NCBI GenBank assembly: GCA_965204745.1
Contig: OZ242010.1
Span: 4,288,001-4,352,000, forward strand
Length of the DNA stretch: 64,000 nucleotides
Direction: 5' to 3'
DNA from: Candidatus Latescibacterota bacterium
Lineage (GTDB): Bacteria > Latescibacterota > UBA2968
Shown: one piece after another, positions 7,936 to 40,322 of the stretch
Numbering within the stretch: position 1 is the stretch's first letter
How the letters are laid out: every line of letters starts with the position of its first letter
Made by a program: the position numbers and the translations under genes
Notes under the pieces: model-generated
What the model was told of the DNA's origin: nothing
Databases searched by the model: none
What the model saw: only the letters and a program-made list of their open reading frames with translations

Positions 7936-8284
7936 GTGGATTCCAGGCTGATTGTCCTCACACAAGCAACACGCAACGGCGTCGATAATACCGCGGAGGG
8001 TGCCGACAAGTGGTTGTCATTATCGACCTATCACACTACGGCATACGTACACATAGAGGAGGGATGAGATGCGACTTTTTTGTCCTACCGCATAACCAGG
8101 AAAGCTTAAACCTCTTTCCCTAGCCAGCAGTTCAATCTATCGCAGTTTTATCAGCAAATTGGGGCTGGAAACCCTATGCTAATTCACAACAGGAGATTAA
8201 GACCATGATTAAATTGGCACAACTGGCCTTGTTGGCCTTGGCAATGCTTGCGACCCTGTTTTCTGGGACTGGATTTGCTTTTGA
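7936..8284 (+). repeat. ~350-bp duplication (leader + RBS + signal peptide), copy 1
   Basis: Nearly identical to 9443-9795 apart from a small indel near the RBS. Confidence 0.95.
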
Positions 8285-9275
8285 AGGGAGGAAGTTACGA
8301 AAGGGAACCTCGGCTATGAAGCTCACGCGGTTGCTGATCTTCGGAACCGTTCTGCTGGTCATGTGCTTTGCTTATGCCTGTGGAAAGGACGATCCGAGCG
8401 GTAGCGGTAGCGGCGGTGGCAGTGGCGGTACGCCCAAGATGTACTGGACGGACGCACTCTGGACAGGAAGCCGATTTACTGATGGTAAGATTCAGCGTGC
8501 CAACTTGGATGGCTCCAATGTCGAAGACCTCATCACCACAGGATTGGGTAATCCAGTTGGCATCGCGCTGGATGTGGGACGCGGAAAGATGTACTGGACG
8601 GAAAGGCGCATGGAGAGGATTCAGCGTGCCAACTTGGATGGCTCCCAGGTTGAAGACCTCATCACCACAGGATTGCGTTTTCCATATGGCATCGCGCTGG
8701 ATGTGGGACGCGGAAAGATGTACTGGACGGAGTGGATCGCGGGTAAGATTCAGCGTGCCAACTTGGATGGCTCCAATGTCGAAGACCTCATCACCACAGG
8801 ATTGAGAGAGCCACTTGGCATCGCGCTGGATGTGGGACGCGGAAAGATGTACTGGACAAACAAGGACTTAGACGGTGACGGTCGCACGTCTAAGATTCAG
8901 CGTGCCAACTTGGATGGCTCCAATGTCGAAGACCTCATCACCACAGGATTGAATGCGCTAGCTAGCATCGCGCTGGATGTGGGACGCGGAAAGATGTACT
9001 GGACAAACACGGACTTAGACGGTGACGGTCGCACGTCTAAGATTCAGCGTGCCAACTTGGATGGCTCCAATGTCGAAGACCTCATCACCACAGGATTGGG
9101 GGGGCCAGAGGGCATCGCGCTGGATGTGGGACGCGGAAAGATGTACTGGAAAAACACGGACTCCGGCGGTCGCACGTCTAAGATTCAGCGTGCCAACTTG
9201 GATGGCTCCAATGTCGAAGACCTCATCACCACAGGATTGAGGCCACCTGTTGGCATCGCGCTGGATGTGCGGTAG
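8205..9275 (+). CDS. YWTD (LDL-receptor class B) six-bladed beta-propeller, likely lipoprotein (alternative start 8316)
   Basis: Six repeats of KMYWT..KIQRANLDGSNVEDLITTGL..GIALDVGRG. Second signal MKLTRLLIFGTVLLVMCFAYA-C followed by a Gly/Ser linker. Confidence 0.9.
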   Translation: MIKLAQLALLALAMLATLFSGTGFAFEGRKLRKGTSAMKLTRLLIFGTVLLVMCFAYACGKDDPSGSGSGGGSGGTPKMYWTDALWTGSRFTDGKIQRANLDGSNVEDLITTGLGNPVGIALDVGRGKMYWTERRMERIQRANLDGSQVEDLITTGLRFPYGIALDVGRGKMYWTEWIAGKIQRANLDGSNVEDLITTGLREPLGIALDVGRGKMYWTNKDLDGDGRTSKIQRANLDGSNVEDLITTGLNALASIALDVGRGKMYWTNTDLDGDGRTSKIQRANLDGSNVEDLITTGLGGPEGIALDVGRGKMYWKNTDSGGRTSKIQRANLDGSNVEDLITTGLRPPVGIALDVR

Positions 9276-9447
9276 TGCCGTCAACGGTGGCGGCAGTGGT
9301 GGTGGAGGGGCCTGTTCGGTGGGGCAGGTGTTGAGTCCGGGGCAGAGTTGCACCGTCAATATTCCCAATATCAATGTCGGCAGTAATCGGTTCGTGGTCC
9401 GCTCCGATGGATCGGGGTGTTACGGCAATATCTGCGCGGGTAGTGGA
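9271..9447 (+). pseudogene. Out-of-frame Gly linker + Cys-rich domain remnant
   Basis: GSAVNGGGSGGGGACSVGQVLSPGQSCTVN...GCYGNICAGSG lies in a shifted frame right after the YWTD stop and is cut off by the duplicated segment. Confidence 0.55.
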
Positions 9448-9795
9448 TTCCAGGCTGATTGTCCTCACACAAGCAACACGCAACGGCGTCGATAATACCG
9501 CGGAGGGTGCCGACAAGTGGTTGTCATTATCGACCTATCACACTACGGCATACGTACACATAGAGGAGGGATGAGATGCGACTTTTTTGTCCTACCGCAT
9601 AACCAGGAAAGCTTAAACCTCTTTCCCTAGCCAGCAGTTCAATCTATCGCAGTTTTATCAGCAAATTGGGGCTGGAAACCCTATGCTAATTCACAGGCGA
9701 CAGGAGATTAAGACCATGATTAAATTGGCACAACTGGCCTTGTTGGCCTTGGCAATGCTTGCGACCCTGTTTTCTGGGACTGGATTTGCTTTTGA
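9443..9795 (+). repeat. ~350-bp duplication, copy 2
   Basis: Matches 7936-8284. Confidence 0.95.
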
Positions 9796-10276
9796 TGGAA
9801 ACAGGGCGGGATTTATTCTTGGAATTGGAGGCGGTGGCGGGTATGCCCGCGATAGGGATACTTTTTTTGATGTGTCTAAGTCAAGTTTCGCCGGGAAAAC
9901 AGATTTTCTCATTGGATATGCGCCGAGCAATCGGCTGGCAATAACTTGGTCAAACAAAGTTTCCTGGTATGATTGGAAGTGGCCTGACTACGACTATGAC
10001 GGATTCTTTGCTTCCAACGGTACGGCTGGACTTGGAATTACTTACTTTCTGTCCGAAGATATAAATGCGAATTTCGTTCAGGCAGTAGTTGGATACAATG
10101 TTGTTTTCGCACCATTTGATGATGTGGGCTCTTCTGGAGGATTTGGACTCGGTATTGGCGTTGGGCGCGAAGTCTCAAAGAATTGGATCATAGGTTTAGA
10201 CGCGACTTGGGGCAGACCTGAAGAAGACGTAACGACATTTGGTATCGGTGTATATTTTTCGCATATCTGGTACTGA
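9716..10276 (+). CDS. Outer-membrane beta-barrel protein
   Basis: Signal peptide ending GFA, alternating amphipathic strands, terminal aromatic residues (YFSHIWY), lower GC. Confidence 0.8.
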   Translation: MIKLAQLALLALAMLATLFSGTGFAFDGNRAGFILGIGGGGGYARDRDTFFDVSKSSFAGKTDFLIGYAPSNRLAITWSNKVSWYDWKWPDYDYDGFFASNGTAGLGITYFLSEDINANFVQAVVGYNVVFAPFDDVGSSGGFGLGIGVGREVSKNWIIGLDATWGRPEEDVTTFGIGVYFSHIWY

Positions 10277-10485: not shown

Positions 10486-13400
10486 GTGATGCGTAAACTG
10501 ATTTTGTCAACGGGCTTGTGTATGACCGCGCTCACAGCGCTGGTCTTTGTGGTCTATCAAGTCGCAGCCGAACCGGATGCCCAAGGCGGCGCGGCCACAG
10601 GGGAATCTTCCCCGATTTCTGAACGGCGAGCGAAAGTTGCCGCTGGTGCCAATGCCAATGCGCGGCTGTCGCTCGATCTGATTCCCAATGGCGGCGCGGG
10701 CGATCAGAGAGATAATGAAGTCACATCGGGCACCGCGTCTGGACGAGATACGATTGCCATTGAGGTTTTTGCAACCGGCGTGACCACCTCTTTGATCGGC
10801 ATGCAACTTCAGTTTGCCTTTGATGCGACTCTGTTGACCTTTGTCAAAGCGGAGAACCGCGCGTTTGTCTTTAACGTGCCACAACCGACGGGCACGGACT
10901 TCGCGGCGTTTTCGCCGGTTCGTTTGGCGTCGTCGGGTTTTCTGGCACGGGCAGAGTTCACCACGGCGCCCGATGTTACGGGCCGGGAATTTTCCATTGG
11001 CCTTGGGTTGGTGACGCTTTCTGAAAGTTTGTCCTCGAGCGATACGCTCACCACGACAAGCCGGATCTCGTTTAACGTTCCGACGACTTCCACGCCCGAT
11101 TTTAATGGCAATGGGAAGGTGGACTTTCCCGATTTCTTGGCGTTTGTCGCGCAATATGGCGCCCGGCGCGGGGATAGCAGATACGAAGCGAAGTACGATT
11201 TGAATAGCGATGGCGCGATAGACTTTCAGGATTTTCTGACTTTTGCCAGCAGTTATGGTCAGTCAGTGCCCCCTTCTGGTGGCGGGAGTCGCAGTCCGGA
11301 TCTGGTCGTTGAAGCGCCGTCGGTCAGCAATAGCACGCTGACGCCCGGTCAATCCTTCACCCTGCAAGCCACCGTTCGCAACCGGGGCACGGGGCCATCA
11401 GCTGCGACGACCTTGCGTTATCATCAATCGTCCGACGCGACGATCACGACCAGCGATAGGTCTGTGGGCACGGACGCAGTCAGCGTGCTTTCGGCTTCGG
11501 GCACGGGTTTGGAATCGATCCCTCTGACCGCGCCTTTGACCCCGGGCACGTATTACTACGGCGCGTGTGTGGCAAGCGTCAGCAACGAGAAAGATACCAG
11601 CAACAACTGCTCGACCGGCGTGCGCGTGACGGTCGGTGGTGGCGGTGGTGGCGGTGGCGGGAGTCGCAGTCCGGATCTGATCGTTGAATCGCCGTCGGTC
11701 AGCGATAGCACGCTGACGCCTGGGCAATCCTTCACCCTGCAAGCCACCGTTCGCAACCGGGGCACGGGGCCATCAACCGCGACGACCTTGCGTTATCATC
11801 AATCGTCCGACGCGACGATCGCGACCAGCGATAGGTCTGTGGGCACGGACGCAGTCAGCGTGCTTTCGGCTTCGGGCACGGGTTTGGAATCGATCCTTCT
11901 GACCGCGCCTTTGAGTGCTGGCACGTATTACTACGGCGCGTGTGTGGCTGCGGTCAGCGGCGAGACCGATGTCAGCAACAACTGCTCGACCGGCATCCGA
12001 GTGGTCGTTGGCGCGCCAGACCTGGTTGTACAATCGCCATCGGTGGATAATACCACGCTGACGCCGGGGCAGTCGCTCACGCTAAGCGCGAAGGTTCACA
12101 ATCAAGGCATGGCTGAGGCGGCGGCGACGACCCTGCGCTATTATCGCTCAACCGACGCGACGATCACCACCGGCGACACAGAAGTCGGCACGGATAGTGT
12201 GAACCGCTTGGCGGCCCGCAACGGCCTTGATACCTCGGTTCGGCTGACCGCGCCAGCGGCCACGGGCACGTATTACTACGGCGCGTGTGTGGCTGCGGTC
12301 AGCGGTGAGAAAGATACCAGCAACAACTGCTCGACCGGCGTCCAAGTGATCGTTGGCGCGCCAGGCTTGCTCGTGCAATCGCTGACGGCGAGTAATACCA
12401 CGCCGACGCCGGGGCAGTCGATCACGCTTCGCGCGACGGTGGGTAATCGAGGCACGGCGGCGGCGACCGCGGCGACCCTGCGCTATTACCAATCGTCTGA
12501 CGCGACGATCACGACCGGCGACACAGAAGTCGGCACGGCGGATGTGATAAGCACCCTGGCGGTGGGAGCGACGAGTGTGCAGTCGAGCAGTGTGACGACG
12601 CCAGCGACCGCGGGCACGTATTACTACGGCGCGTGTGTGGTAGCGGTCAGGGGCTCGAGCGATAACTGCTCGGCCGGCGTCCGAGTGGTCGTTGGCGCGC
12701 CAGACCTGCTCGTGCAATCGCCATCGGTGGATAATACCACGCCGACGGCTGGGCAGTCGATCACGCTACGTGCGACGGTGCTCAACCGAGGCACGGCGAC
12801 GGCCGCGGCGACCACCCTGCGCTATTACCTCTCAGCCGACGCGACGATCACGACCGGCGACACAAAAGTTGGCACGGCGGATGCGATAAGCGCCTTGGCG
12901 GTGTCGGCGACGAGTGAGCAGTCGAGCAGCGTGCCCGTGTCAGCGATCCCCGGCACGTATTACTACGGCGCGTGTGTGGTTGCGGTCAGCAACGAGAAAG
13001 ATACCAGCAACAACTGCTCGGCCAGCGTCCGGGTGACCGTTGGCGCGCCAGACCTGGTCGTGCAATCGCCATCGGTGGATAAGACCACGGCGGCGACGGC
13101 GCAGTCGCTTACGCTAAGCGCGACAGTGCGTAATCAAGGCACGGGGGCGGCGACGACGACCACCCTGCGCTATTACCTTTCAGCCGACGCGACGATCACG
13201 ACCGACGACACGCCAGTCGGCACGGACGCAGTCAGCGCCCTGGCGGTGTCGGCGACGAGTGTGCAGTCGAGTAGCGTGCCCGTGGCAGCGATCCCCGGCA
13301 CGTATTACTACGGCGCGTGCGTGGATGCGGTCAGCGGCGAGAGCAACACCACCAACAACTGCTCGACCGGCGTCCGGGTGACCGTTGGTACTCCAGACCT

Positions 13401-16400
13401 GCTTGTGCAATCGGCATCGGTGGATAATACCACGCTGACGCCGGGGCAGGCGTTCACGCTTCGCGCGACGGTGCTCAACCGAGGCACGGCGGCGGCGGCG
13501 ACGACGACCCTGCGCTACTATCAATCGTCCGACGCGACGATCACGACCGGCGACACAGAAGTCGGCACGGCAGATGCGATAAGCGCCCTGGCGGTGTCGG
13601 CGACGAGTGAGCAGTCGAGTAGTGTGACCGCACCAGCGACCGCGGGCACGTATTACTACGGCGCGTGTGTGGCGAGCATCGGCGAGAGCAACACCGACAA
13701 CAACTGCTCGACCGGCGTCCAAGTGATCGTTGGCGCGCCAGGCTTGCTCGTGCAATCGGTGTCGGTGGACGATACCACGCCGACGCCGGGGCAGGCGATC
13801 ACGCTTCGCGCGACGGTGGGTAATCGAGGCACGGCGGCGGCGACAGCGGCGACCCTGCGCTACTACCAATCGTCTGACGCGACGATCACGACCGGCGACA
13901 CAGAAGTCGGCACGGCGGATGCGATAAGCGCGCTGGCGGTGTCGGCGACGAGTGAGCAGTCGAGTCGTGTGACTGCGCCTTTGACCGCGGGCACGTATTA
14001 CTACGGCGCGTGTGTGTTAGTCAGGGGCTTGAGCGATACGAACAACAACTGCTCGGCCGGTGTCCGAGTGGTCGTCGGCGCGCCAGACCTGCTCGTGCAA
14101 TCGCCTGCGGTGGATAATACCACGCCGACGACAGGGCAGGCGTTCACGCTAAGCGCGACGGTGTTCAACCGAGGCACGGCTGAGGTAGCGGCGGCGACCC
14201 TGCGCTATTACCGCTCAACCGACGCGACGATCACGACCGGCGACACAGAAGTCGGCACGTCGGATGCGATAAGCGTGCTGGCGGTGTCGGCGAAGAGTGT
14301 GCAGTCGAGTAGCGTGACTGCGCCTTCGACCACGGGCACGTATTACTACGGCGCGTGCGTGGATGCGGTCAGCGGCGAGAGCAACACCAACAACAACTGC
14401 TCGGCCGGCGTCCAAGTGACCGTTGGCGCGCCAGACCTGCTCGTGCAATCGCCTGCGGTGGATAAGACCACGGCGACGCCGGGGCAGGTGCTCACGCTCC
14501 GCGCGACGGTGCGTAATCAAGGCACGGCGACGGCGACAGCGACCACTCTGCGCTATTACCAATCGTCTGACGCGACGATCACCACCAGCGACACGCAAGT
14601 CGGCACGTCGGATGCGATCAGCGCGCTGGCGGCGTCGGCGACGAGTGAGCAGTCGAGTAGCGTGACCGCGCCAGCGGCAGTGGGCACGTATTACTTTGGC
14701 GCGTGTGTGGCAAGCGTCAGTGCCGAGAGTGCGACGAACAACAACTGCTCGGATGGCGTGCGCGTCATGGTCGTTGTTCCTGACCTGATCGTTGAATCGC
14801 CTTCGGTGGACGATACCACGCCGACGCCGGAGCAGTCGATCACGCTTCGCGCGACGGTGCGTAATCAAGGCACCGGGCAGGCCGCAACGACGACCCTTCG
14901 CTATTACCGCTCAACCAATGCGACGATCACGACCGGCGACACAGAAGTTGGCTCGGCGGATGCGATCAGCGCGCTGGCGGCGTCGGCGACGAGTGAGCAG
15001 TCGAGTAGCGTGACGGCGCCAACAACCGCGGGCACGTATTACTACGGCGCGTGTGTGGCAAGCGTCAGCGGCGAGACCGATGTCAGCAACAACTGCTCGG
15101 CCGGCGTCCAAGTGACCGTTGGTGCGCCAGACCTGCTTGTGCAATCGCCTTCGGTGGACGATACCACGCCGACGCCTGGGCAGTCGATCACGCTAAGCGC
15201 GACGGTGCGTAATCAAGGCACGGCCGAGGCCGCGGCGACGACCCTGCGCTATTACCAATCGTCTGACGCGACGATCACGACCGACGACACAGAAGTTGGC
15301 TCGTCGGATGCGATCAGCGCCCTGGCGGCGTCGGCGACGAGTGAGCAGTCGAGTAGCGTGACCGCACCAGCAACCGCGGGCATGTATTACTACGGCGCGT
15401 GTGTGGCAAGCGTCAGTGCCGAGACCGATGTCAGCAACAACTGCTCGGGCAGCGTCCAAGTGACCGTTGGCGCGCCAGACCTGGTTGTGCAATCGCCTTC
15501 GGTGGACGATACCACGCCGACGCCTGGGCAGTCGCTCACGCTAAGCGCGACGGTGCGTAATCAAGGCACGGCCGAGGCCGCGGCGACGACCCTGCGCTAT
15601 TATCAATCGTCTGACGCGACGATCACGACCGACGACACAGAAGTTGGCTCGTCGGATGCGATCAGCGCGCTGGCGGCGTCGGCGACGAGTGAGCAGTCGA
15701 GTAGCGTGACCGCACCAGCAACCGCGGGCACGTATTACTACGGCGCGTGTGTGGATGCGGTCAGCGGCGAGACCGATGTCAGCAACAACTGCTCGGCCGG
15801 CGTCCAAGTGACCGTTGGTGCGCCAGACCTGCTTGTGCAATCGCCTTCGGTGGACGATACCACGCCGACGCCTGGGCAGTCGATCACGCTAAGCGCGACG
15901 GTGCGTAATCAAGGCACGGCCGAGGCCGCGGCGACGACCCTGCGCTATTACCAATCGTCTGACGCGACGATCACGACCGACGACACAGAAGTTGGCTCGT
16001 CGGATGCGATCAGCGCCCTGGCGGCGTCGGCGACGAGTGAGCAGTCGAGTAGCGTGACCGCACCAGCAACCGCGGGCATGTATTACTACGGCGCGTGTGT
16101 GGCAAGCGTCAGTGCCGAGACCGATGTCAGCAACAACTGCTCGGGCAGCGTCCAAGTGACCGTTGGCGCGCCAGACCTGGTTGTGCAATCGCCTTCGGTG
16201 GACGATACCACGCCGACGCCTGGGCAGTCGCTCACGCTAAGCGCGACGGTGCGTAATCAAGGCACGGCCGAGGCCGCGGCGACGACCCTGCGCTATTATC
16301 AATCGTCTGACGCGACGATCACGACCGACGACACAGAAGTTGGCTCGTCGGATGCGATCAGCGCCCTGGCGGCGTCGGCGACGAGTGAGCAGTCGAGTAG

Positions 16401-18360
16401 CGTGACCGCGCCTTCAACCGCGGGCACGTATTACTACGGCGCGTGTGTGGTAGCAGTCAGCGGCGAGACCGATACGAACAACAACTGCTCGGCCGGCGTC
16501 CAAGTGACCGTTGGCGCGCCAGACCTGCTTGTGCAATCGCCTTCGGTGAATGATACCACGCCGACGCCTGGGCAGTCGATCACGCTAAGCGCGACGGTGC
16601 GTAATCAAGGCACGGCTGAAGCGGCGGCGACGACCCTGCGCTATTACCAATCGTCTGACGCGACGATCACGACCGGCGACACAGAAGTTGGCTCGTCGGA
16701 TGCGATAAGCGCGCTGGCGGCGTCGGCGACGAGTGAGCAGTCGAGTAGCGTGACCGCGCCAGCGACCGCGGGCACGTATTACTACGGCGCGTGTGTGGCA
16801 AGCGTCAGTGCCGAGACCGATGTCAGCAACAACTGCTCGGCCGGCGTCCAAGTGGTCGTTGGTGCGCCAGACCTGGTTGTGCAATTGCCTTGGGTGAGTA
16901 GTACCATACGGGCGACTGGGCAGGCGCTGACGCTAAGCGCGACGGTGCGTAATCAAGGCACGGCTGAGGCGGCGGCGACGACCCTGCGCTATTACCAATC
17001 GTCTGACGCGACGATCACCACTGGCGACACAGAAGTTGGCACGTCGGATGCGATAAGCGCACTGGCGGCTTCGGCGACGAGCGCGCAGTCAAGTAGCGTG
17101 ACCGCGCCAACGACCGCCGGCACATATTACTACGGCGCGTGTGTGGCAAGCGTCAGCGGCGAGAGTGCTACGAACAACAACTGCTCGGCTGGCGTACGCG
17201 TCACGGTCGTTGTTCCTGACCTGATCGTTGAATCGCCTTCGGTGAGTGATACCACGCGGGCGCCGGGGGAGTCGCTGACGCTAAGCGCGACGGTGCGTAA
17301 TCAAGGCACCGGGCGGGCCGCGGCGACGACCCTGCGCTATTACCAATCGTCTGACGCGACGATCACCACTGGCGACACAGAAGTTGGCTCGTCGGATGCG
17401 ATCAGAGCGCTGGCGGCGTCGGCGACGAATGCACAGTCGAGTAGCGTGACTGCTCCAGCGACCACCGGCACGTATTACTACGGCGCGTGTGTGGATGCGG
17501 TCAGCGGCGAGATCAACACCAACAACAACTGCTCGGGTGGCGTGCGCGTCACGGTGAAGCCGTCCAAGATGTACTGGGTGGGTGAGCACTGGACAAGAGG
17601 CCAATGGAGGCCTAAGATTCAGCGTGCCAACTTGGATGGCTCCAATGTCGAAGACCTCATCACCACAGGATTGAATTTGCCAAATGGCATCGCGCTGGAT
17701 GTGGGACGCGGAAAGATGTACTGGACGGTATATTGGTTCTCCCTTAACCAGGGTAAGATTCAGCGTGCCAACTTGGATGGCTCCAATGTCGAAGACCTCA
17801 TCACCGCAGGAGTGCATTCTACAGGTGGCATCGCGCTGGATGTGGGCCGCGGAAAGATGTACTGGACAAACCTGAGCGCGGGTAAGATTCAGCGTGCCAA
17901 CTTGGATGGCTCCAATGTCGAAGACCTCATCACCACAGGATTGGGGACGCCAGAAGGCATCGCGCTGGATGTGGGACGCGGAAAGATGTACTGGACGGAC
18001 TCTTACAAGCAAAAGATTCAGCGTGCCAACTTGGATGGCTCCAATGTCGAAGACCTCATCACCACAGGATTGACTGTGCCATTGGCCATCGCGCTGGATG
18101 TGGGACGCGGAAAGATGTACTGGACGGACTCTGACACGAATAAGATTCAGCGTGCCAACTTGGATGGCTCCAATGTCGAAGACCTCATCACCACAAAAGA
18201 CCCATTTTACATCGCGCTGGATGTGGGCCGCGGAAAGATGTACTGGACGGACACTGGCACGAATAAGATTCAGCGTGCCAACTTGGATGGCTCACTGATC
18301 GAAAATATCCAGCCCACAGGAACGTGGAATCCATATGGCATCGCGCTGGATTTGCGGTAG
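10486..18360 (+). CDS. Giant secreted protein: cohesin-like, dockerin/EF-hand pair, 18 CARDB-like repeats, C-terminal YWTD propeller
   Basis: Signal peptide; DFNGNGKVDFPDF/DLNSDGAIDFQDF; 18 ~116-aa units P(D/G)L..ATTLRYY.S.DATIT..YYGACV..NNCS; six YWTD blades. Confidence 0.9.
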   Translation: MMRKLILSTGLCMTALTALVFVVYQVAAEPDAQGGAATGESSPISERRAKVAAGANANARLSLDLIPNGGAGDQRDNEVTSGTASGRDTIAIEVFATGVTTSLIGMQLQFAFDATLLTFVKAENRAFVFNVPQPTGTDFAAFSPVRLASSGFLARAEFTTAPDVTGREFSIGLGLVTLSESLSSSDTLTTTSRISFNVPTTSTPDFNGNGKVDFPDFLAFVAQYGARRGDSRYEAKYDLNSDGAIDFQDFLTFASSYGQSVPPSGGGSRSPDLVVEAPSVSNSTLTPGQSFTLQATVRNRGTGPSAATTLRYHQSSDATITTSDRSVGTDAVSVLSASGTGLESIPLTAPLTPGTYYYGACVASVSNEKDTSNNCSTGVRVTVGGGGGGGGGSRSPDLIVESPSVSDSTLTPGQSFTLQATVRNRGTGPSTATTLRYHQSSDATIATSDRSVGTDAVSVLSASGTGLESILLTAPLSAGTYYYGACVAAVSGETDVSNNCSTGIRVVVGAPDLVVQSPSVDNTTLTPGQSLTLSAKVHNQGMAEAAATTLRYYRSTDATITTGDTEVGTDSVNRLAARNGLDTSVRLTAPAATGTYYYGACVAAVSGEKDTSNNCSTGVQVIVGAPGLLVQSLTASNTTPTPGQSITLRATVGNRGTAAATAATLRYYQSSDATITTGDTEVGTADVISTLAVGATSVQSSSVTTPATAGTYYYGACVVAVRGSSDNCSAGVRVVVGAPDLLVQSPSVDNTTPTAGQSITLRATVLNRGTATAAATTLRYYLSADATITTGDTKVGTADAISALAVSATSEQSSSVPVSAIPGTYYYGACVVAVSNEKDTSNNCSASVRVTVGAPDLVVQSPSVDKTTAATAQSLTLSATVRNQGTGAATTTTLRYYLSADATITTDDTPVGTDAVSALAVSATSVQSSSVPVAAIPGTYYYGACVDAVSGESNTTNNCSTGVRVTVGTPDLLVQSASVDNTTLTPGQAFTLRATVLNRGTAAAATTTLRYYQSSDATITTGDTEVGTADAISALAVSATSEQSSSVTAPATAGTYYYGACVASIGESNTDNNCSTGVQVIVGAPGLLVQSVSVDDTTPTPGQAITLRATVGNRGTAAATAATLRYYQSSDATITTGDTEVGTADAISALAVSATSEQSSRVTAPLTAGTYYYGACVLVRGLSDTNNNCSAGVRVVVGAPDLLVQSPAVDNTTPTTGQAFTLSATVFNRGTAEVAAATLRYYRSTDATITTGDTEVGTSDAISVLAVSAKSVQSSSVTAPSTTGTYYYGACVDAVSGESNTNNNCSAGVQVTVGAPDLLVQSPAVDKTTATPGQVLTLRATVRNQGTATATATTLRYYQSSDATITTSDTQVGTSDAISALAASATSEQSSSVTAPAAVGTYYFGACVASVSAESATNNNCSDGVRVMVVVPDLIVESPSVDDTTPTPEQSITLRATVRNQGTGQAATTTLRYYRSTNATITTGDTEVGSADAISALAASATSEQSSSVTAPTTAGTYYYGACVASVSGETDVSNNCSAGVQVTVGAPDLLVQSPSVDDTTPTPGQSITLSATVRNQGTAEAAATTLRYYQSSDATITTDDTEVGSSDAISALAASATSEQSSSVTAPATAGMYYYGACVASVSAETDVSNNCSGSVQVTVGAPDLVVQSPSVDDTTPTPGQSLTLSATVRNQGTAEAAATTLRYYQSSDATITTDDTEVGSSDAISALAASATSEQSSSVTAPATAGTYYYGACVDAVSGETDVSNNCSAGVQVTVGAPDLLVQSPSVDDTTPTPGQSITLSATVRNQGTAEAAATTLRYYQSSDATITTDDTEVGSSDAISALAASATSEQSSSVTAPATAGMYYYGACVASVSAETDVSNNCSGSVQVTVGAPDLVVQSPSVDDTTPTPGQSLTLSATVRNQGTAEAAATTLRYYQSSDATITTDDTEVGSSDAISALAASATSEQSSSVTAPSTAGTYYYGACVVAVSGETDTNNNCSAGVQVTVGAPDLLVQSPSVNDTTPTPGQSITLSATVRNQGTAEAAATTLRYYQSSDATITTGDTEVGSSDAISALAASATSEQSSSVTAPATAGTYYYGACVASVSAETDVSNNCSAGVQVVVGAPDLVVQLPWVSSTIRATGQALTLSATVRNQGTAEAAATTLRYYQSSDATITTGDTEVGTSDAISALAASATSAQSSSVTAPTTAGTYYYGACVASVSGESATNNNCSAGVRVTVVVPDLIVESPSVSDTTRAPGESLTLSATVRNQGTGRAAATTLRYYQSSDATITTGDTEVGSSDAIRALAASATNAQSSSVTAPATTGTYYYGACVDAVSGEINTNNNCSGGVRVTVKPSKMYWVGEHWTRGQWRPKIQRANLDGSNVEDLITTGLNLPNGIALDVGRGKMYWTVYWFSLNQGKIQRANLDGSNVEDLITAGVHSTGGIALDVGRGKMYWTNLSAGKIQRANLDGSNVEDLITTGLGTPEGIALDVGRGKMYWTDSYKQKIQRANLDGSNVEDLITTGLTVPLAIALDVGRGKMYWTDSDTNKIQRANLDGSNVEDLITTKDPFYIALDVGRGKMYWTDTGTNKIQRANLDGSLIENIQPTGTWNPYGIALDLR

Positions 18361-18391
18361 TGCCATCAACGGTGGCGGTGGCTGTTTTTAA

Positions 18392-18612
18392 GAGGACCTA
18401 TCCCCCGGCCCCGTTACTCGCTACGCTTCGTTGTAGGCTACGCCTGTGCCTACGAGGAAAGGGGAGGAAAGCGCCTTTGATGGCTTAATCAAGGGTTGCG
18501 CTGATGGCATTGACCGAGTGCATAAAGCGATTAAAAATCTCTCACGCCATCCCCTCGCAAAACCGCTCGCCATGCCCCCTTCCTTTAAGGAAGGGGGTTA
18601 GGGGGTAGGTCT
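18392..18612. repeat. REP/MITE-like element, second locus, with nested ~36-bp module
   Basis: Homologous to 3089-3276. Carries the inserted gttactcgctacgcttcgttgtaggctacgcctgtg, which is also seen near 7432 and 48562. Confidence 0.8.
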
Positions 18613-18626
18613 CCCTCGCAATCCCC

Positions 18627-18669
18627 AACCGCAGGATATAAGACGGGGCGAACGCACACGGCGGGGCGG
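18627..18669 (+). repeat. 43-bp direct repeat, left of the Rpn array
   Basis: aaccgcaggatataagacggggcgaacgcacacggcggggcgg, 2 mismatches to 22084-22126. Confidence 0.9.
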
Positions 18670-18775
18670 TAGTGCGGCGCGGCTGGGGAAAATCACTTGA
18701 CAGCGCGAGCGGGATTGCGGATTATTTATTTTGTTCCGCAAGTCGTTCAAACCATAGCACATCAGGAGGCGTCTC

Positions 18776-19765
18776 ATGGCAGAATACGATACGATTCCCA
18801 AGCAGTTGATGCACCTCTACCCGCAAGACCTCATCCGCTTGGCACTCGGACGCGAGGAGGTCGAAATTGAAGTTGAAGAAGTCCTCGACACCGAACTCCC
18901 CAAGGTGGAAACGCGCCTGGTCGATAGCCTTATTCGCGTGCGGATCGATGGCGAGGAAGCCTTGATCCACATCGAATTTCAAACCTCGGATAGCGCGAAT
19001 ATGGCTCGTCGCATGGCTTCCTATATCATTCGTCTCATCGAGCAGTATGACTTGCCGGTCTATTCCTTTGTCATCTATCTGCGTCCCAATGCCGGGCGGA
19101 GCGATAAGGGATTTTTCCGCCAAGATCATGCGGACTTCCCCGTGCTGGTGCGCTACAAGGTGATTCGGTTGAGCGAGCTGGACGGGCAGGGCATTCTTGA
19201 AGGCGACCAGGCCGGCTTGCTTCCTTTCGCGCCCTTGATGAAGCCGCCTGTGGGGATGGGTTCCGAAGATTGGTTGCGTGCGTGTGTTCGCAAGGGCGAT
19301 TCGGTTTCGTTGGATGAGGCAGACAAGGCGAATTATTTGGGTAGCTTGGCGGTCTTGAGTGGGTTGGCGTATGATCCTGCCACCATCAACCGAATTTTTT
19401 CCCAGGAGGGTTTTATGGACGCGATTATGCGTGAGTCATCGTTTGCCCAGTACCTCGAGGAGCGCGGCATTGAGCGCGGCATCGAGCAGGGAATCGAGCG
19501 CGGCATTGAGCAGGGAATCGAGCGCGGCATTGAGCAGGGAATCGAGCAGGGAATCGAGCAGGGAATCGAGCAGGGCGTTGAACGAGGCATTCGAGAGAGC
19601 ATCCGAGAAGCGTTGGCGATTCGCTTTGATGCAGGTGTGGCCGGTCAGTTCGCCGCTCGCATTGCGACCATCGACGATTTGCAACGGCTCAAGCAGTTGC
19701 TTCGCTCGGCGATGCAAGTGGATGATCTGGCGGCCTTTCAGCGCGTGTTGGATGCGGAAGCCTAA
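18776..19765 (+). CDS. Rpn/YhgA-like PD-(D/E)XK nuclease, copy 1
   Basis: VDSL...IHIEFQ...RMASY motifs, GIE(Q/R) repeats, helical C-terminal domain. Confidence 0.9.
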   Translation: MAEYDTIPKQLMHLYPQDLIRLALGREEVEIEVEEVLDTELPKVETRLVDSLIRVRIDGEEALIHIEFQTSDSANMARRMASYIIRLIEQYDLPVYSFVIYLRPNAGRSDKGFFRQDHADFPVLVRYKVIRLSELDGQGILEGDQAGLLPFAPLMKPPVGMGSEDWLRACVRKGDSVSLDEADKANYLGSLAVLSGLAYDPATINRIFSQEGFMDAIMRESSFAQYLEERGIERGIEQGIERGIEQGIERGIEQGIEQGIEQGIEQGVERGIRESIREALAIRFDAGVAGQFAARIATIDDLQRLKQLLRSAMQVDDLAAFQRVLDAEA

Positions 19766-19791
19766 CGCGATTCCCTGTCAGGAGGCGTCTC

Positions 19792-20865
19792 ATGGCAGAA
19801 TACGATACGATTCCCAAGCAGTTGATGCACCTCTACCCGCAAGACCTCATCCGCTTGGCACTCGGACGCGAGGATGTCGAAATTGAAGTTGAAGAAGTCC
19901 TCGACACCGAACTCCCCAAGGTGGAAACGCGCCTGGTCGATAGCCTCATGCGCGTGCGGATCGATGGCGAGGAAGCCTTGATCCACATCGAATTTCAAAC
20001 CTCGGATAGCGCGAATATGGCTCGTCGCATGGCTTCCTATATCATCCGCCTCATCGAGCAGTATGACTTGCCGGTCTATTCCTTTGTCATCTATCTGCGT
20101 CCCAATGCCGGGCGGAGCGATAAGGGATTTTTTCGCCAAGATCATGCGGACTTCCCCGTGCTGGTGCGCTACAAGGTGATTCGGTTGAGCGAGCTGGATG
20201 GGCGCGGCATTCTTGAAGGCGACCAGGCCGGCTTGCTTCCTTTCGCGCCGTTGATGAAGCCGCCTGTGGGGATGGGTTCCGAGGACTGGTTGCGTGCGTG
20301 TGTTCGCAAGGGCGATTCGGTTTCGTTGGATGAGGCAGACAAGGCGAATTATTTGGGTAGCTTGGCGGTCTTGAGTGGGTTGGCGTATGATCCTGCCACC
20401 ATCAACCGAATTTTTTCCCAGGAGGGTTTTATGGACGCGATTATGCGTGAGTCATCGTTTGCCCAGTACCTCGAGGAGCAGTTCAAGGAACAGTTTCTTG
20501 AGCAGGGCATTGAGCAGGGCATCGAGCGCGGCATTGAGCAGGGAATCGAGCAGGGCATCGAGCAGGGAATCGAGCAGGGCATCGAGCGCGGCATCGAGCA
20601 GGGAATCGAGCAGGGAATCGAGCAGGGAATCGAGCAGGGAATCGAGCAGGGAATCGAGCAGGGCATTGAGCGCGGGGGTAGAGAACATACCATTGCCGCT
20701 ATCCTCGACGTGTTGGAGATTCGCTTTGATGTGGTCGTTGCCGGTCAGTCCGCCGCTCGCATTGCGACCATCGACGATTTGCCGAGGCTCAAGCGGTTGC
20801 ATCGTGCAGCGGTGCAAGCGGATGATCTGGCGGCCTTTCAGCGCGTGTTGGATGCGGAAGCCTAA
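19792..20865 (+). CDS. Rpn/YhgA-like PD-(D/E)XK nuclease, copy 2
   Basis: Near-identical N-terminal domain; different repeat number and C-terminal tip (GGREHTIAAILDVLEIRF). Confidence 0.9.
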   Translation: MAEYDTIPKQLMHLYPQDLIRLALGREDVEIEVEEVLDTELPKVETRLVDSLMRVRIDGEEALIHIEFQTSDSANMARRMASYIIRLIEQYDLPVYSFVIYLRPNAGRSDKGFFRQDHADFPVLVRYKVIRLSELDGRGILEGDQAGLLPFAPLMKPPVGMGSEDWLRACVRKGDSVSLDEADKANYLGSLAVLSGLAYDPATINRIFSQEGFMDAIMRESSFAQYLEEQFKEQFLEQGIEQGIERGIEQGIEQGIEQGIEQGIERGIEQGIEQGIEQGIEQGIEQGIEQGIERGGREHTIAAILDVLEIRFDVVVAGQSAARIATIDDLPRLKRLHRAAVQADDLAAFQRVLDAEA

Positions 20866-20891
20866 CGCGATTCCCTGTCAGGAGGCGTCTC

Positions 20892-21977
20892 ATGGCAGAA
20901 TACGATACGATTCCCAAGCAGTTGATGCACCTCTACCCGCAAGACCTCATCCGCTTGGCTCTCGGACGCGAGGATGTCGAAATTGAAGTTGAAGAAGTCC
21001 TCGATACCGAACTCCCCAAGGTGGAAACGCGCCTGGTCGATAGCCTTATTCGCGTGCGGATCGATGGCGAGGAAGCCTTGATCCACATCGAATTTCAAAC
21101 CTCGGATAGCGCGAATATGGCTCGTCGCATGGCTTCCTATATCATCCGTCTCATCGAGCAGTATGACTTGCCGGTCTATTCCTTTGTCATCTATCTGCGT
21201 CCCAATGCCGGGCGGAGCGATAAGGGATTTTTTCGCCAAGATCATGCGGACTTTCCCGTGCTGGTGCGCTACAAGGTGATTCGGTTGAGCGAGCTGGACG
21301 GGCGCGGCATTCTTGAAGGCGACCAGGCCGGCTTGCTTCCTTTCGCGCCGTTGATGAAGCCGCCTGTGGGGATGGATTCCGAAGATTGGTTGCGCGCGTG
21401 TGTTCGCAAGGGCGATGAGGTTTCGTTGGATGAGGCAGACAAGGCGAATTATTTGGGTAGCTTGGCGGTCTTGAGTGGGTTGGCTTATGATCCTGCCACC
21501 ATCAACCGAATTTTTTCCCAGGAGGGTTTTATGGACGCGATTATGCGTGAGTCATCGTTTGCCCAGTACCTCGAGGAGCAGTTCAAGGAACAGTTTCTTG
21601 AGCAGGGCATTGAGCAGGGAATCGAGCGCGGCATCGAGCAGGGAATCGAGCAGGGAATCGAGCAGGGAATCGAGCAGGGAATCGAGCAGGGAATCGAGCA
21701 GGGAATCGAGCAGGGAATCGAGCAGGGAATCGAGCAGGGAATCGAGCAGGGAATCGAGCAGGGCATTGAGCAGGGAATCGAGCAGGGCGTTGAACGAGGC
21801 ATCCAAGAGAGCATCCGAGAAGCGTTGGCGATTCGCTTTGATGCAGGTGTGGCCGGTCAGTTCGCCGCTCGCATTGCGACCATCGACGATTTGCAACGGC
21901 TCAAGCAGTTGCTTCGCTCGGCGATGCAAGCGGATGATCTGACAGCCTTTCAGCGCGTGTTGGATGCGGAGATCTGA
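20892..21977 (+). CDS. Rpn/YhgA-like PD-(D/E)XK nuclease, copy 3
   Basis: As above, with the longest GIEQ tract. Confidence 0.9.
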
Positions 21978-34639: not shown

Positions 34640-34796
34640 GCGAGCAAGGCTTCTGAAGGGCGATACCCGTAGCGATTGTTTCCCCAGGTCATAGCGATAG
34701 ATCAAATGCCCGGCCTTGACGCGCCTCACTGCGTCGCCGGCATCGAGAAACACCTCCACGCAAATCGAACAAATAATCTTCCACTTCAGTCGGCAT
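34640..34796 (-). pseudogene. Collapsed remnant of a PhyH-like dioxygenase
   Basis: MPTEVEDYLFDLRG start coupled to the upstream stop, then VEVFLDAGDA..IYRY in another frame. Confidence 0.45.
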
Positions 34797-36189
34797 CAAA
34801 TTTTTCCTCCCCATTCCTCTCAAAAATTGCCGTGGCAACCTGCATCGTTTCAGCCACAGCATTGCGGAGGTCCCCCTGGAGGTCGTGAACTTGGCGCGCG
34901 CAAGCGACGAGGCGTTCGCGCGGTTCGCCGCTTTTGAGCATGGGCAGGAGGAACTCCCGTTCAAAAATGGATTCTCTGATTTCCGGCTGGACAGCCGTTA
35001 TCGCGAGATAATAAACCTGCTTCCGAAACATTTCCGATGTGAAAATGCTCCACAACAGGAGTGCCTCTGCATGGGTTTCTGGGCGAATCGCAATAAACCC
35101 GGTCGTGACCAAGTGCCCATCAAACTCGGGCGGCACAATGACGGCAGTGCCCCGAGAGGAAATGTTCTTAGCCAACAAAACATCGTTGGTCTGCACCTGC
35201 AATCGCGCCCGGGTGGGCAGATTTTCAAAAAAATCCTCGCGGTAATTGACGATAGCCCCTTCTCGGGTCACGTCTCCGATCTCAAAATATCGAAAGAGTT
35301 TGCCCTCGCACGCCTCTCCTTCTCGTGCGGTCAACTTTGGCACAATACGAAAATCACTACCGGTTAGCAACTCGACGCGTCCTTCCACAGCGCGGGCTTG
35401 CAAATCGGCCCGCGTTCTCGCCAAATCCGGCGCGTAGTAAAACGCATCCAACCGCTTGGGATCGAGTTCGTCCGCAGGCACGACAAACGTCTGGAAAGGA
35501 CAGCCCAAGTTCTCATTCTGAACCGCGTTGGGTTCAAACACTTCGATGATCTCCCCTTTCATCCGCCAGTGATTCCAGACCTCTGTCAGCCGCGGGATGT
35601 TATTTCGTTCAGGTGTGTAACGCTGATAGTCGTCATGGCCCACATTGTTGAGTATGCCCATGAAAACCGCGCCTTGTTCGTCGTTTTTGTTTTCGCGTTT
35701 CACAAGGTGAATGATGGACGTTTGCACCCCGGCTTGTGCCTGCAAAAAAGTATTGAACGGCAAAGCGATGACTTGGCGGACGATAAAATTTTCCAAAATA
35801 TAATCGCGGTATGTCTGGCTGTTCTCGCCATTGAGAACGGTGTTGTCGATCACCGTGAGCAACTCACCGCCAGGGTTGAGAAGCTCGCAATACCGCTCGA
35901 GAAACAAAACATTGGATTTCGTACTGCTCTCGCGCTTCCCATTCTTGGTGACAGCGATTTCGTATTGATCCAGCATCCGCCTCTCGTCGTCATTTTTGCG
36001 TTGGTACGAGATGCTGAACGGCGGGTTGGTCAGCACGACGTCAAATTTGCGACGCTCAAAAATTAAAAGTTGTTGGAGTTCTTTGACCTCGTTGGTCCTC
36101 TCCAGCGATAAGCCGGTGGGCGGCAGAAGTTCGCCATCGAGGGTATCGGCCACAAATACCGTACTGCCCCCGTCTCCGTGCAAATACAT
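34786..36189 (-). pseudogene. N-terminally truncated N6-adenine DNA methyltransferase with a C-terminal specificity (TRD-like) domain
   Basis: Begins at MYLHGDG and has LTNPPF and LFLERY..LNPGG, but no SAM-binding motif I. HsdS-like LPTRAR...TTGF at the C-terminus. Confidence 0.75.
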
Positions 36190-36202
36190 ATCGTTCCCTA
36201 TC

Positions 36203-37171
36203 CTATTGCGTTGTTGTCTTGGACTGATCCTGGTCGAGTTCCATTGTTCGCACGCGCGTGGAAACATCTTTGAGGATGAGGCGGTTGGTGGCAATGAGAT
36301 CGGCGACAATGCCGGTGAGGAACATCTGGAACCCGGCGAGCAGGAGAATGGCCGCGAGGATGAGCGATTGAATGTGGAGTTCGCCCTCGTCGGTAAAAAA
36401 GAAAAAATAGAGAAACCGAAACCCGAGCAACGCGCCCGCGGAAAATGTGACCGCGCCAAACGCGAAAAAAATCCGCAGGGCTTTGTAGCACGCGTACGTC
36501 CGTAGGGAAATCTCGCCCGACTTAAAGACAAATTCCCCTAAATTTGTGAACAGGCGCGATTCGCGCGTTTTGGGATTGGTGCGAATGGGCACGATTTCAA
36601 TGGCGAGGTGGTCTTGCCCTGCTTGCACGACTTGCTCGGCGGTGTGATCAAAATCCGTGAATATCAACAAATGCAGGGCCGCATCCCGGGAAAATGCGCG
36701 AAACCCACAGGCGACATCGGGCACCTCAATCTGGGCGAGGCGGCTGATCACGCGGCTACCGAGCCACTGGAGCCATCGCTTCAAAAAAGAAAAGTGGTCG
36801 ATGCTGCTCGTTTGCCGATCCCCAATGACCATGTGGGCGCGCTTGTCGAGAATGGGTTGCACGAGCGCGGCAATATCGCCGCCGTAATACTGGTTGTCGC
36901 CATCCGTGTTGACGATGATATCCGCGCCGAGTTTGAGGCAGGTGTCAAAGCCCACCTTGAAGGCATGCCCCAAGCCGCGATTTTTGGGGAACGTGACGAC
37001 GTGATCCACGCCGAGTTCCCGCGCCACTTCAGCCGTGCGGTCATCCGACCCGTCGTCAATGACCAAGATCTCGACTTTGTCAATGCCGGGGATAGCACGC
37101 GGAATATCCTCGATCGTCGCGGGCAGGGTTTCTTCTTCGTTGAGGCAGGGAATTTGGACGATGAGTTTCAT
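36203..37171 (-). CDS. Glycosyltransferase family 2 (polyprenol-phosphate type) with two C-terminal TM helices
   Basis: IPCLNEE, DDGSDD, NTDGDNQY. Confidence 0.93.
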   Translation of the reverse strand: MKLIVQIPCLNEEETLPATIEDIPRAIPGIDKVEILVIDDGSDDRTAEVARELGVDHVVTFPKNRGLGHAFKVGFDTCLKLGADIIVNTDGDNQYYGGDIAALVQPILDKRAHMVIGDRQTSSIDHFSFLKRWLQWLGSRVISRLAQIEVPDVACGFRAFSRDAALHLLIFTDFDHTAEQVVQAGQDHLAIEIVPIRTNPKTRESRLFTNLGEFVFKSGEISLRTYACYKALRIFFAFGAVTFSAGALLGFRFLYFFFFTDEGELHIQSLILAAILLLAGFQMFLTGIVADLIATNRLILKDVSTRVRTMELDQDQSKTTTQ

Positions 37172-37298
37172 GTTGGGACCTGGGGATTAGGGGTTGGCGT
37201 GTATTCGTTTCTTGACGAAATCAAAGACATTTGGTCACATGGAAATCGCGTCACTCATCCGCATCCAACAGACGCTAAACGTCATTTAGACTGCACAT

Positions 37299-37831: not shown

Positions 37832-37895
37832 TGTTTCTCCTTTCTACCCGCACAGCCTTGATTTCCGCTTGGATTTCTTTGTGTTGATGAGCGAC

Positions 37896-39575: not shown

Positions 39576-39584
39576 GGGAAAATG

Positions 39585-39646: not shown

Positions 39647-39714
39647 GCCCAACCCCCATCACCCGTAGATCAGCGACATGCTTCGCGGCCGTTGCGTTCA
39701 TCCGCGGTTGCGCC

Positions 39715-40314: not shown

Positions 40315-40322
40315 GGAAACCT

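Follow-up and report, generated by a model that had tools for sequence, protein, structure and literature searches.

Uniform scaffold and hypervariable loop codons in a putatively secreted YWTD propeller family of a Latescibacterota bacterium

The DNA analyzed here (the window) is a stretch of 64,000 nucleotides from Candidatus Latescibacterota bacterium (contig OZ242010.1, positions 4,288,001 to 4,352,000, forward strand). It carries two genes for YWTD propellers, here called A and B, and this work mainly concerns the propeller that forms the C-terminus of the 2624-residue product of gene B. We consider it likely that this propeller is a distal ligand-binding head, belonging to a family in which the scaffold recombines and the hypervariable sites, all on one face, are under selection. 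The fold, the architecture, the size of the family, the positions of the variable sites, the contrast in rates and the signs of recombination were obtained directly; the remainder is drawn from them by inference. According to this reading, blades and whole genes would have been repeatedly duplicated and recombined, through tandem amplification, segmental duplication and blade-to-blade exchange, and duplication and exchange would keep the four-strand scaffold nearly uniform even at silent sites. Six positions per blade, three past YWT(D) in the B-C loop and three in TGLxxPxG, would shift their amino acid far above the neutral rate, giving about 36 variable residues per propeller, all on one face. 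The genome would thereby encode a propeller repertoire that combines a single framework with differing binding surfaces.

Architecture and fold of the gene B product

The main parts of gene B are listed below. Coordinates without a prefix are those of the window, and the prefix C1 marks positions in the whole genome.

10486..18360, + strand: gene B, a secreted/surface protein of 2624 residues bearing the propeller (open reading frame (ORF); Pfam)
10486..10569, + strand: putative Sec signal peptide, about residues 1-28 (read from the sequence: RK, hydrophobic run, VAA)
11098..11238, + strand: dockerin / EF-hand-like Ca-binding module, residues 205-251 (Pfam Dockerin_1, NCBIfam dockerin_GC)
11293..17550, + strand: array of about 18 near-identical CARDB (Ig-like) repeats, presumed stalk (Pfam CARDB)
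17566..18360, + strand: six-bladed YWTD propeller (Pfam PF00058, structural model, Foldseek)

Over the whole protein, Pfam detected CARDB (E 1.7e-182, 18 stretches), Ldl_recept_b (E 3.7e-38) and Dockerin_1 (E 3.7e-5); neither EGF and Ldl_recept_a (LA) modules nor NLR/STAND domains (NACHT, NB-ARC) were found by this search. The N-terminus is a probable Sec signal peptide. Analyzed separately, the dockerin module scored E 7.9e-6 and 26.4 bits with Pfam Dockerin_1 (cut-off 22.9) and E 3.1e-5 with NCBIfam dockerin_GC, under the cut-off of the latter. Three cohesin-domain matches were present in the genome, two of them clearly above cut-off. The order of the modules suggests a long stalk with a binding head at its distal end, and the protein is possibly displayed on the cell, anchored by dockerin-cohesin pairing.

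The propeller runs from KMYW at 17566 to the stop codon at 18360, in frame with the ORF 10486..18360 and at its 3' end. It matched Pfam PF00058 (Ldl_recept_b) in five stretches; the score of 144.7 bits (E 1.1e-42) lies above the cut-off of 21. The AlphaFold2 model of residues 2361-2624, for which 40 sequences were aligned, displayed four strands per blade (predicted local distance difference test score 96.1, predicted template modelling score 0.93), and in this model the C-terminus is a closed six-bladed YWTD propeller. When the model was submitted to Foldseek, the matches were LRP6, LRP4, nidogen, LDLR and megalin, with template modelling (TM) scores of 0.81-0.86 at 22-32% identity (3s8z_A, E 9e-21, TM 0.83; 1npe_A, TM 0.84; 1ijq_A, TM 0.82). 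Several of the top matches are ligand complexes.

MYW precedes every blade of gene B; it is extended to YWT in five of the six and to YWTD in three. Across the family described below, the Asp of this motif is found in 64 of the 70 canonical blades. Each blade consists of a variable loop after MYW(T), a constant block of 20 residues (KIQRANLDGSNVEDLITTGL), a second variable loop and a constant block of 13 residues (IALDVGRGKMYWT). In the model, MYWT(D) forms strand B and is followed by the first variable loop; KIQRAN then forms strand C, LDGSN a turn and EDLI strand D. After strand D come the variable loop TGLxxPx, strand A (GIALDV) and a GRG turn. The modelled strand order and the antiparallel four-stranded topology together place the B-C and D-A loops on one face, so that one face is predicted to bear both variable loops and the opposite face both constant turns. 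The B-C loop of blade 1 was modelled as an extended, protruding beta-hairpin. The loops are as follows.

17578..17613, + strand: blade 1, B-C loop VGEHWTRGQWRP, without similar loop DNA elsewhere in the genome
17674..17688, + strand: blade 1, D-A loop NLPNG
17725..17754, + strand: blade 2, B-C loop TVYWFSLNQG, without a similar loop elsewhere in the genome
17815..17829, + strand: blade 2, D-A loop HSTGG
17866..17883, + strand: blade 3, B-C loop TNLSAG, 6 of 18 nucleotides differing from the sister gene (see below)
17944..17958, + strand: blade 3, D-A loop GTPEG
17995..18012, + strand: blade 4, B-C loop TDSYKQ
18073..18087, + strand: blade 4, D-A loop TVPLA
18124..18141, + strand: blade 5, B-C loop TDSDTN
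18202..18210, + strand: blade 5, D-A loop, shortened, PFY after TKD
18247..18264, + strand: blade 6, B-C loop TDTGTN
18325..18339, + strand: blade 6, D-A loop WNPYG; strand D has diverged too (SLIENIQP)

An initial annotation of this DNA, made from the letters alone, had picked out twelve loop peptides in the propeller, and all of them are present where it had placed them.

Uniform scaffold and hypervariable codons

The second propeller gene of the window lies about 8.3-9.3 kb upstream of the gene B propeller.

8205..9275, + strand: gene A, 356 residues, a signal/lipoprotein-like leader followed from about 8436 by a six-bladed YWTD propeller (ORF; Pfam)

Gene A matched PF00058 in six stretches (E 6.3e-44), and its six blades are built as in gene B. 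The 60-nucleotide block encoding KIQRANLDGSNVEDLITTGL is identical at the DNA level in 10 of the 12 blades of the two genes; deviations are listed for blades A2, B2, B5 and B6, those of A2 and B2 amounting to a few bases only. For the first 36 nucleotides of the second block (IALDVGRGKMYW), eight of the ten full-length copies are identical and two carry one silent change. The recurrence of constant blocks some 9 kb away on another chassis, which the initial annotation had pointed out, was thereby confirmed, and the shared scaffold is far beyond chance. The loop DNA of genes A and B has no common sequence and is of unequal length. Within gene A, the B-C loops of blades 4-6 are near-identical, which indicates a recent local duplication of blades.

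The same scaffold is found throughout the 5.48-Mb genome, assembled as one contig, where the exact 60-mer occurs 26 times. A six-frame motif search detected at least 129 blades in 17 ORFs, arranged in 29 runs of adjacent blades, of which 13 contain six detected blades. Two ORF pairs look frameshift-split: the YWTD genes at C1:3279522-3286476 and C1:4562487-4568137 each consist of two ORFs, with a frame change or stop inside a blade, and are either pseudogenes or the product of sequencing errors in repeats. Over 105 blades of this genome, scaffold identity is 0.89 for amino acids and 0.92 for silent third bases.

The analysis of variable sites used 70 of the 129 blades, those with the canonical 43 codons; 59 were excluded because their loops differ in length or because they are cut short at the end of a domain. 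Six columns, 3, 4, 6, 27, 28 and 30, each hold 10-15 different amino acids, with an entropy of 2.3-3.6 bits. Columns 3, 4 and 6 lie just past YWTD, in the B-C loop, and columns 27, 28 and 30 are the x positions of TGLxxPxG, in the D-A loop. Nucleotide diversity is 0.53 in these six codons versus 0.07 in the other 37. Scaffold codons are largely invariant, silent sites included (ATT, GAT, CTC and TAC, 70/70 each). The conserved codons standing between the hypervariable ones are also fixed (ACG 55 versus ACA 2, CCA 60 versus CCT 1, GGC 59/59), and the lack of silent change in these interleaved codons makes a regional mutator unlikely.

Third-base choice in the hypervariable codons is frozen column by column. 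At column 3 we counted 43 T, 24 G, 3 C and no A; at column 4, C in 65 of 70; at column 6, T in 60; at column 28, 39 G and 25 T; and at column 30, 42 T, 24 G, 4 A and no C. For the same amino acids, the codon usage of the genome predicts mostly C and G at these columns, and the departure from it gave chi-square p values of 1e-13 to 1e-22, which are overstated since the blades are related. Genome-wide, ACT, GCT, CTT and AGG each make up at most 8% of the codons of their own amino acid. Third-base transitions, which are always silent, are nearly absent from the hypervariable codons, and T/G transversions, which switch the amino acid in split codon boxes, are common. Such a pattern is expected if only steps that alter the amino acid are taken, and the outcome resembles the NNK scheme of synthetic libraries. 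By the Nei-Gojobori method over 2415 blade pairs, the hypervariable codons gave a non-synonymous divergence (dN) of 1.14 and a synonymous divergence (dS) of 0.42, and the other 37 codons 0.063 and 0.108. The dN/dS ratio is thus about 2.7 at the six hypervariable codons versus 0.58 elsewhere (pairwise estimates, without a likelihood site model).

The hypervariable sites are rich in W, Y, S, D, N, R and G, and C and M are absent from them. Compared with a crude proteome background, W is enriched 3.3-fold, S 2.5-fold, Y 2.4-fold, and D and N 2.1-fold each, with F at 0.6-fold. Several of the loops had been described as rich in aromatic residues. This stands for 5 of the 12 gene B loops and, family-wide, for W and Y; it does not extend to F. 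The overall composition of the hypervariable sites is typical of binding sites. Given this composition, and by analogy with animal YWTD propellers, we infer that the variable face binds ligands. The driving force would be selection for new binding specificities, or escape from something that recognizes the variable face.

Sister locus, blade exchange and alternative explanations

A sister gene of the same architecture as gene B lies at C1:3233188-3240777. It encodes 2529 residues and is 96.8% identical to gene B over 6.8 kb of the 5' part. The sequence following both genes served as a neutral yardstick.

18361..18775, no strand: 3' intergenic flank common with the sister locus (8 mismatches in 415 aligned nucleotides versus C1:3.233 Mb)

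Mismatches between the two loci number 13 in 815 nucleotides of the 5' non-repeat part, 8 in 415 of the 3' intergenic sequence and 10 in 687 of the downstream gene. Flank divergence is therefore 1.5-1.9% over more than 1.9 kb on both sides (98.1-98.5% identity). Such low divergence on either side indicates that the whole segment was duplicated recently, and this duplication explains the scaffold identity of gene B and its sister. Within blades 3-5, mismatches amount to 3 of 261 scaffold nucleotides (1.1%) and 25 of 102 loop nucleotides (24.5%; Fisher p 2.4e-12). The loops of this pair have thus changed about 20 times faster than scaffold and flanks, and 18 of their codon differences change the amino acid whereas one is silent. 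Positional homology with the sister is still visible in the alignment of loops 3-5, the differences being point changes. Blades 1, 2 and 6 differ further, by indels. Taken together, the frozen third bases, the quiet interleaved codons, the dN/dS values and the rate contrast in the sister pair point to young loops in which selection probably favors changes of amino acid, rather than to old islands spared by conversion.

The stalk differs between the two genes as well. At 14900-16900, several CARDB repeats of gene B are exact or near-exact copies, including a recurring two-repeat unit, and the sister gene has another number of CARDB repeats (2529 versus 2624 residues in all). These copies and the unequal repeat count suggest that stalk length also changes by unequal recombination.

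Exchange between blades was assessed on the scaffold. A maximum likelihood tree was built from 87 scaffold nucleotides of 105 of the 129 blades, the 24 without a complete second block being left out. Labelled by gene, the tree required 43 changes against a shuffled mean of 75.3, and none of 300 shuffles was as low. Labelled by position in the propeller, it required 38 changes against 34.5, and 292 of 300 shuffles were as low or lower. Blades cluster by gene, not by position. Moreover, scaffold markers lying 12-60 nucleotides apart, each with states separated by at least 2 nucleotides, are found in each of the four possible pairings (TTG/CTC at column 13, AATGTC/CAGGTT at columns 17-18, GGACGC/GGGGGC at columns 37-38), which indicates exchange between blades. 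Thus the blade phylogeny and recombination analysis suggested along with the initial annotation yielded gene clustering and four-way marker combinations; clustering by position with uniform divergence over scaffold and loops was not observed. The general proposal that the scaffold is homogenized as the loops diversify held in that genes share scaffold DNA, loops diversify and blades recombine. Conversion specifically between genes A and B found no support: the 51-nucleotide scaffold haplotype that they share, in five blades each, is the majority type of the family (30 blades, 11 genes). A mosaic scan of gene B in 300-nucleotide windows showed best matches switching between paralogues around 17050-17800, at identities of 86-92%; breakpoint calling was dropped, the paralogues being too alike.

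Tandem duplication of blades also appears to be ongoing, as neighboring blades carry near-duplicate loops in gene A (blades 4-6), in pairs of the 28-blade ORF C1:3306234-3313832 and in the relative G016. In the sister gene, two adjacent blades share the same derived Q>H change, yet have different loops. Homogenization and repeated blade amplification are not fully separable with these data.

Relatives were searched for the same family, which was present in 36 of 41 genomes with this one counted, including 20 of 20 other members of the genus and 14 of 16 of the sister family. In relatives, all blades of a gene carry genome-specific scaffold variants, such as RSDLDG...LVT in G003, GSHVEDL in G018 and VGNSK in G007. 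Silent third-base identity of scaffold codons is 0.92 within G016, as in the present genome; it is 0.87 within G003 versus at most 0.74 to others, and 0.89 within G035 versus at most 0.76. For G003, G007, G012 and G035, silent sites agree better within the genome than with other genomes. For comparison, fourfold-site identity of SelA to this genome is 0.81 in G016, 0.85 in G018, 0.56-0.59 in G003 and G007, and 0.29 in G026. Six-bladed propellers occur over this entire range of genomes, yet the blades of one genome resemble each other more than single-copy genes do across species. Concerted evolution in some form must therefore be at work, be it conversion, re-amplification or turnover. A gene of 2659 residues in G016 aligns with gene B at about 75% across the CARDB array; flank homology between the two was not found, and no positional orthologue was established.

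In metagenomes, bacterial YWTD proteins are numerous, with at least 7364 at E <= 1e-10 among 8000 candidates examined. A metagenome scan for near-identical variants gave 43 loci, the best at 63% identity, and in the 11 of them with at least four detected blades, silent identity between blades was 0.44-0.75. These low values in unrelated loci indicate that extreme homogeneity is a feature of this lineage and not of bacterial YWTD propellers generally. Sequencing runs gave 16 rows with small shares (maximum 0.24), and the mapped contigs, of 70-217 nucleotides, fit paralogous blades too. In the mapped runs X1, X2, X6 and X9, variant letters pile up at the loops for this reason, and depth is very low at the unique B1 loop (17557-17607). 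Since such short contigs also fit paralogous blades, strain polymorphism and habitat are not readable from these letters.

Several points weigh against the reading of a recombining scaffold with selected sites on one face. The blades are related by descent rather than independent, so that counts over the 70 blades and the chi-square p values are overstated. The case for selection rests on pairwise estimates, without a formal site-model test, and the ratio of non-synonymous to synonymous differences in the loops of the sister pair (pN/pS 0.279/0.141, about 2) is not significant alone (Fisher p 0.29); in that pair, the case leans on flank and scaffold rates that gene conversion has possibly lowered. 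The mapping of variable sites to one face derives from topology and a predicted model, not from coordinates. Finally, scaffold silent sites are 0.90 identical to those of G016, which is as close as within either genome and above the SelA silent sites (0.81-0.83), an excess that a simple model of a young family does not predict; against G026, scaffold third bases are 0.67 identical and those of SelA, which are saturated, 0.29-0.38. This excess could stem from preferred codons in so short a sample, from silent sites being constrained or from lineages exchanging sequence.

Other explanations were weighed against the same observations. It might be that propellers and loops are both old, that frequent short-tract conversion erases divergence of the scaffold, and that the loops are spared by non-homology or by selection. 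We find this doubtful. The four marker combinations, the clustering of blades by gene rather than position, the genome-specific scaffold variants throughout the genes of relatives (with the higher within-genome silent identity in G003, G007, G012 and G035) and the adjacent sister-gene blades sharing Q>H with unlike loops are all in its favor. However, old loops should be saturated at silent sites and follow the codon usage of the genome, and their third bases are frozen instead; the interleaved conserved codons are nearly without silent variants, and a sister pair differing by 1.5-1.9% over more than 1.9 kb of two-sided flanks has loops 3-5 that still align and differ by point changes. It is unlikely that each propeller was simply rebuilt from one or two blades by tandem duplication, with loops that then drifted or adapted, and without conversion. 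This account largely overlaps the recombining-scaffold reading and differs only in denying blade-to-blade exchange. The near-duplicate neighbors in gene A, in the 28-blade ORF and in G016 agree with it, and independent amplifications have been described for other propeller families by Pereira and Lupas 2022 (PMC9218822). Nevertheless, four-way combinations of markers 12-60 nucleotides apart need exchange and not duplication alone, and the majority haplotype spans 11 genes of differing architecture.

A dedicated machine writing the loops, whether a diversity-generating retroelement (DGR), cassette replacement from silent donors or recombination promoted by Rpn-like genes, seems very unlikely to us, even though hypervariability is sharply localized, several gene B loops vary in length without a detectable precursor, and Rpn-like genes (27 tblastn matches in the genome) stand within 1 kb of YWTD ORFs at four places. 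The single PF00078 (RVT_1) match of the genome, a gene of 578 residues at C1:5010819-5011442 (L001), is a retron type I-C reverse transcriptase-Toprim (PADLOC, E 1.8e-218) and not of DGR type, and blastn of both propellers against 10 kb around it returned only chance matches of at most 19 nucleotides, none resembling a template repeat. Donor cassettes were rejected for this genome after the loops of genes A and B had been compared with all its other blades, among which the odd loops (the B-C loops of B1, B2 and A1 and the D-A loop of B5) have no counterpart. The variation is not adenine-specific, TGG being the commonest codon at column 3, and it respects codon position, unlike that of a mutator. 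With no reverse transcriptase of DGR type among PF00078 matches, no template repeat and no adenine-directed change, a DGR was rejected. No Rpn-like gene was found around the YWTD genes of relatives (23 loci totalling 130 kb). Least credible of all is that the loops are unconstrained and neutral, or that scaffold identity is an artefact of assembly or polishing. Surface loops usually tolerate change, and this is a metagenome-type assembly with many repeats; but a loop divergence of 24.5% versus 1.5-1.9% in the flanks is above any neutral rate, nearly all changes alter the amino acid, the same pattern is seen in independently assembled relatives such as G016 and G018, and the unique loops anchor each blade in the assembly.

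Genomic surroundings and relation to known systems

Directly downstream of gene B lie further genes that were duplicated along with it.

18776..21977, + strand: three tandem Rpn-like genes with (GIEQ/GIER)n repeats (ORFs; the sister locus is arranged alike)

They encode 329-361 residues, with an Rpn-like N-terminal part followed by a variable (GIEQ/GIER)n stretch. NCBIfam TIGR01784 matched with E 4.7e-7, under its cut-off, and Atlas features scored 0.97 to Rpn-family clusters. Further Rpn-like loci were found at C1:3229989-3232767, C1:3314430-3315104 and C1:156706-157380. Between gene B and these genes, at about 18400-18480, contig depth rises to about 58,000 in all four mapped runs, and partial matches occur elsewhere in the genome near C1:295009, 1234742 and 1259902; this stretch is probably a small dispersed repeat.

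Both ends of gene A displayed additional features. Its first 26 residues or so (MIKLAQLALLALAMLATLFSGTGFAF; 8205-8320) equal the signal peptide (at 9716-9790) of the ORF 9683-10276, which encodes 197 residues without a family match, and a second, lipoprotein-like leader begins at residue 38 of gene A. The true start may be the second Met, the first part being a duplicated fragment. Past the stop of gene A, the +2 frame relative to it (9250-9495) encodes a Gly/Ser linker and a Cys-containing segment of about 60 residues with no Pfam match. Gene B and its sister gene are each followed by no more than the same short remnant of this tail, located at 18338-18385 for gene B. Terminal propellers whose end is IALD(L/V)R-stop may have arisen from longer genes through a frameshift.

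Elsewhere in the window, a DNA methyltransferase cluster (N6_Mtase/Eco57I, two N6_N4_Mtase, D12 class) with a HerA-like DUF87 ATPase at 34789-45461 and two AAA_21/AAA_15 ATPase genes at 49840-54105 look like a restriction-modification/defense island. Genes for SelB and SelA (selenocysteine machinery) stand side by side at 54137-57582; in several relatives, the SelA match contains one in-frame TGA. The closest named SelA records, at 77-79% identity, belong to chromosome-level metagenome-assembled genomes of Candidatus Latescibacterota.

Animal YWTD propellers (LDLR, LRP4, LRP5/6, ApoER2, nidogen) share PF00058, the six-bladed fold and the MYWT(D) motif of strand B with gene B. The binding of DKK1 by LRP6, of agrin by LRP4 and of laminin by nidogen takes place at the top face of the propeller. 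This face has been described as the site of intramolecular and ligand contacts (PMC5452030). Unlike the animal proteins, gene B has no flanking EGF or LA modules, and its propeller sits on a CARDB stalk in a secreted bacterial protein. Whereas animal blades have diverged, those of the gene B family are near-identical and occur in many copies per genome.

The closest match in mode is with the WD40 repeats of fungal NLR proteins, which, in the parts of the sources consulted, combine DNA-similar repeats, concerted evolution and a few diversifying surface codons. For the het-d/het-e (HNWD) genes, concerted evolution of repeats within and between genes, high internal conservation and positive selection were reported (Paoletti 2007, PMC1805685), and for fungal NLR WD40 repeats in general, high internal conservation with four positively selected surface positions per repeat (Dyrka 2014, PMC4986451). 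The HNWD trait of repeats more than 85% identical is also displayed by the present scaffold, as judged from its amino-acid and silent identities. The fungal proteins differ in being WD40 and intracellular STAND/NLR proteins, in contrast to the secreted bacterial YWTD family; repeat-induced point mutation (RIP) of fungi has no counterpart here, and six rather than four positions per repeat are hypervariable.

Near-identical blade DNA with few or no silent changes is likewise found in the propellers covered by Pereira and Lupas 2022 (PMC9218822), for example the Nostoc WRAP domain; lineage-specific variants common to all blades were explained there by independent amplification of single blades. 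The main text of that paper, supplements aside, contains none of the terms YWTD, LDL, hypervariable and gene conversion. Unlike those cases, one scaffold extends here across 17 ORFs, with signs of blade exchange and sharply defined hypervariable sites. In sponge-associated Poribacteria, which belong to another phylum, tandem PF00058 repeats predicted to be extracellular were reported by Kamke 2014 (PMC3909097); as far as the consulted part of that paper goes, it gives presence and counts only, states that virtually nothing is known on bacterial PF00058 repeats, and does not contain the words "hypervariable" and "propeller". A paper on sponge-associated Latescibacterota treats other repeat families, and "propeller", "CARDB" and "dockerin" do not occur in the part consulted. 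DGR targets resemble the present family in having variability localized in a ligand-binding surface of a secreted protein; they differ by their DGR-type reverse transcriptase and template repeat, both lacking here, and the changes in the present family are not adenine-directed and respect codon position. No description of hypervariable, internally conserved bacterial YWTD propellers was found in the main texts of the literature, supplements aside. Thus the evolutionary mode, conserved repeats with a hypervariable surface, has precedent, and what is new is its occurrence in a secreted bacterial YWTD family.

A more far-reaching reading, which we put forward as tentative, is that of a germline-encoded repertoire of variable receptors, made of dozens of propellers whose faces of about 36 residues are selected and reshuffled blade by blade among at least 17 genes. 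Exchange between related co-resident lineages may contribute, with help from the flanking Rpn-like genes. If so, conspecific strains would carry different recognition sets for surfaces of hosts, prey, phages or neighbors, and the family would parallel the diversification of fungal NLR repeats in an extracellular, prokaryotic setting and serve as a natural source of binders built on propellers.

For the family itself, the likely reading of a ligand-binding head with selected sites on one face has several consequences. Bacterial YWTD propellers are abundant in metagenomes yet functionally blank, and the evolution of this genome would itself mark their working surface, at six positions per blade on one face. 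One bacterium can hold a large variant set of a single framework, which offers a clean natural data set to separate amplification, conversion and selection in repeat proteins. The mode of a conserved repeat plus a hypervariable surface, known from immune receptors of fungi, would extend to secreted proteins of bacteria. Should the ligands prove to be molecules of hosts or phages, the family would bear on partner recognition by uncultured symbiont-like bacteria. Such variation is surprising where YWTD propellers are seen as parts of animal receptors. The defined faces, which can be swapped or screened, provide a direct experimental handle and make the function of an abundant, blank family testable.

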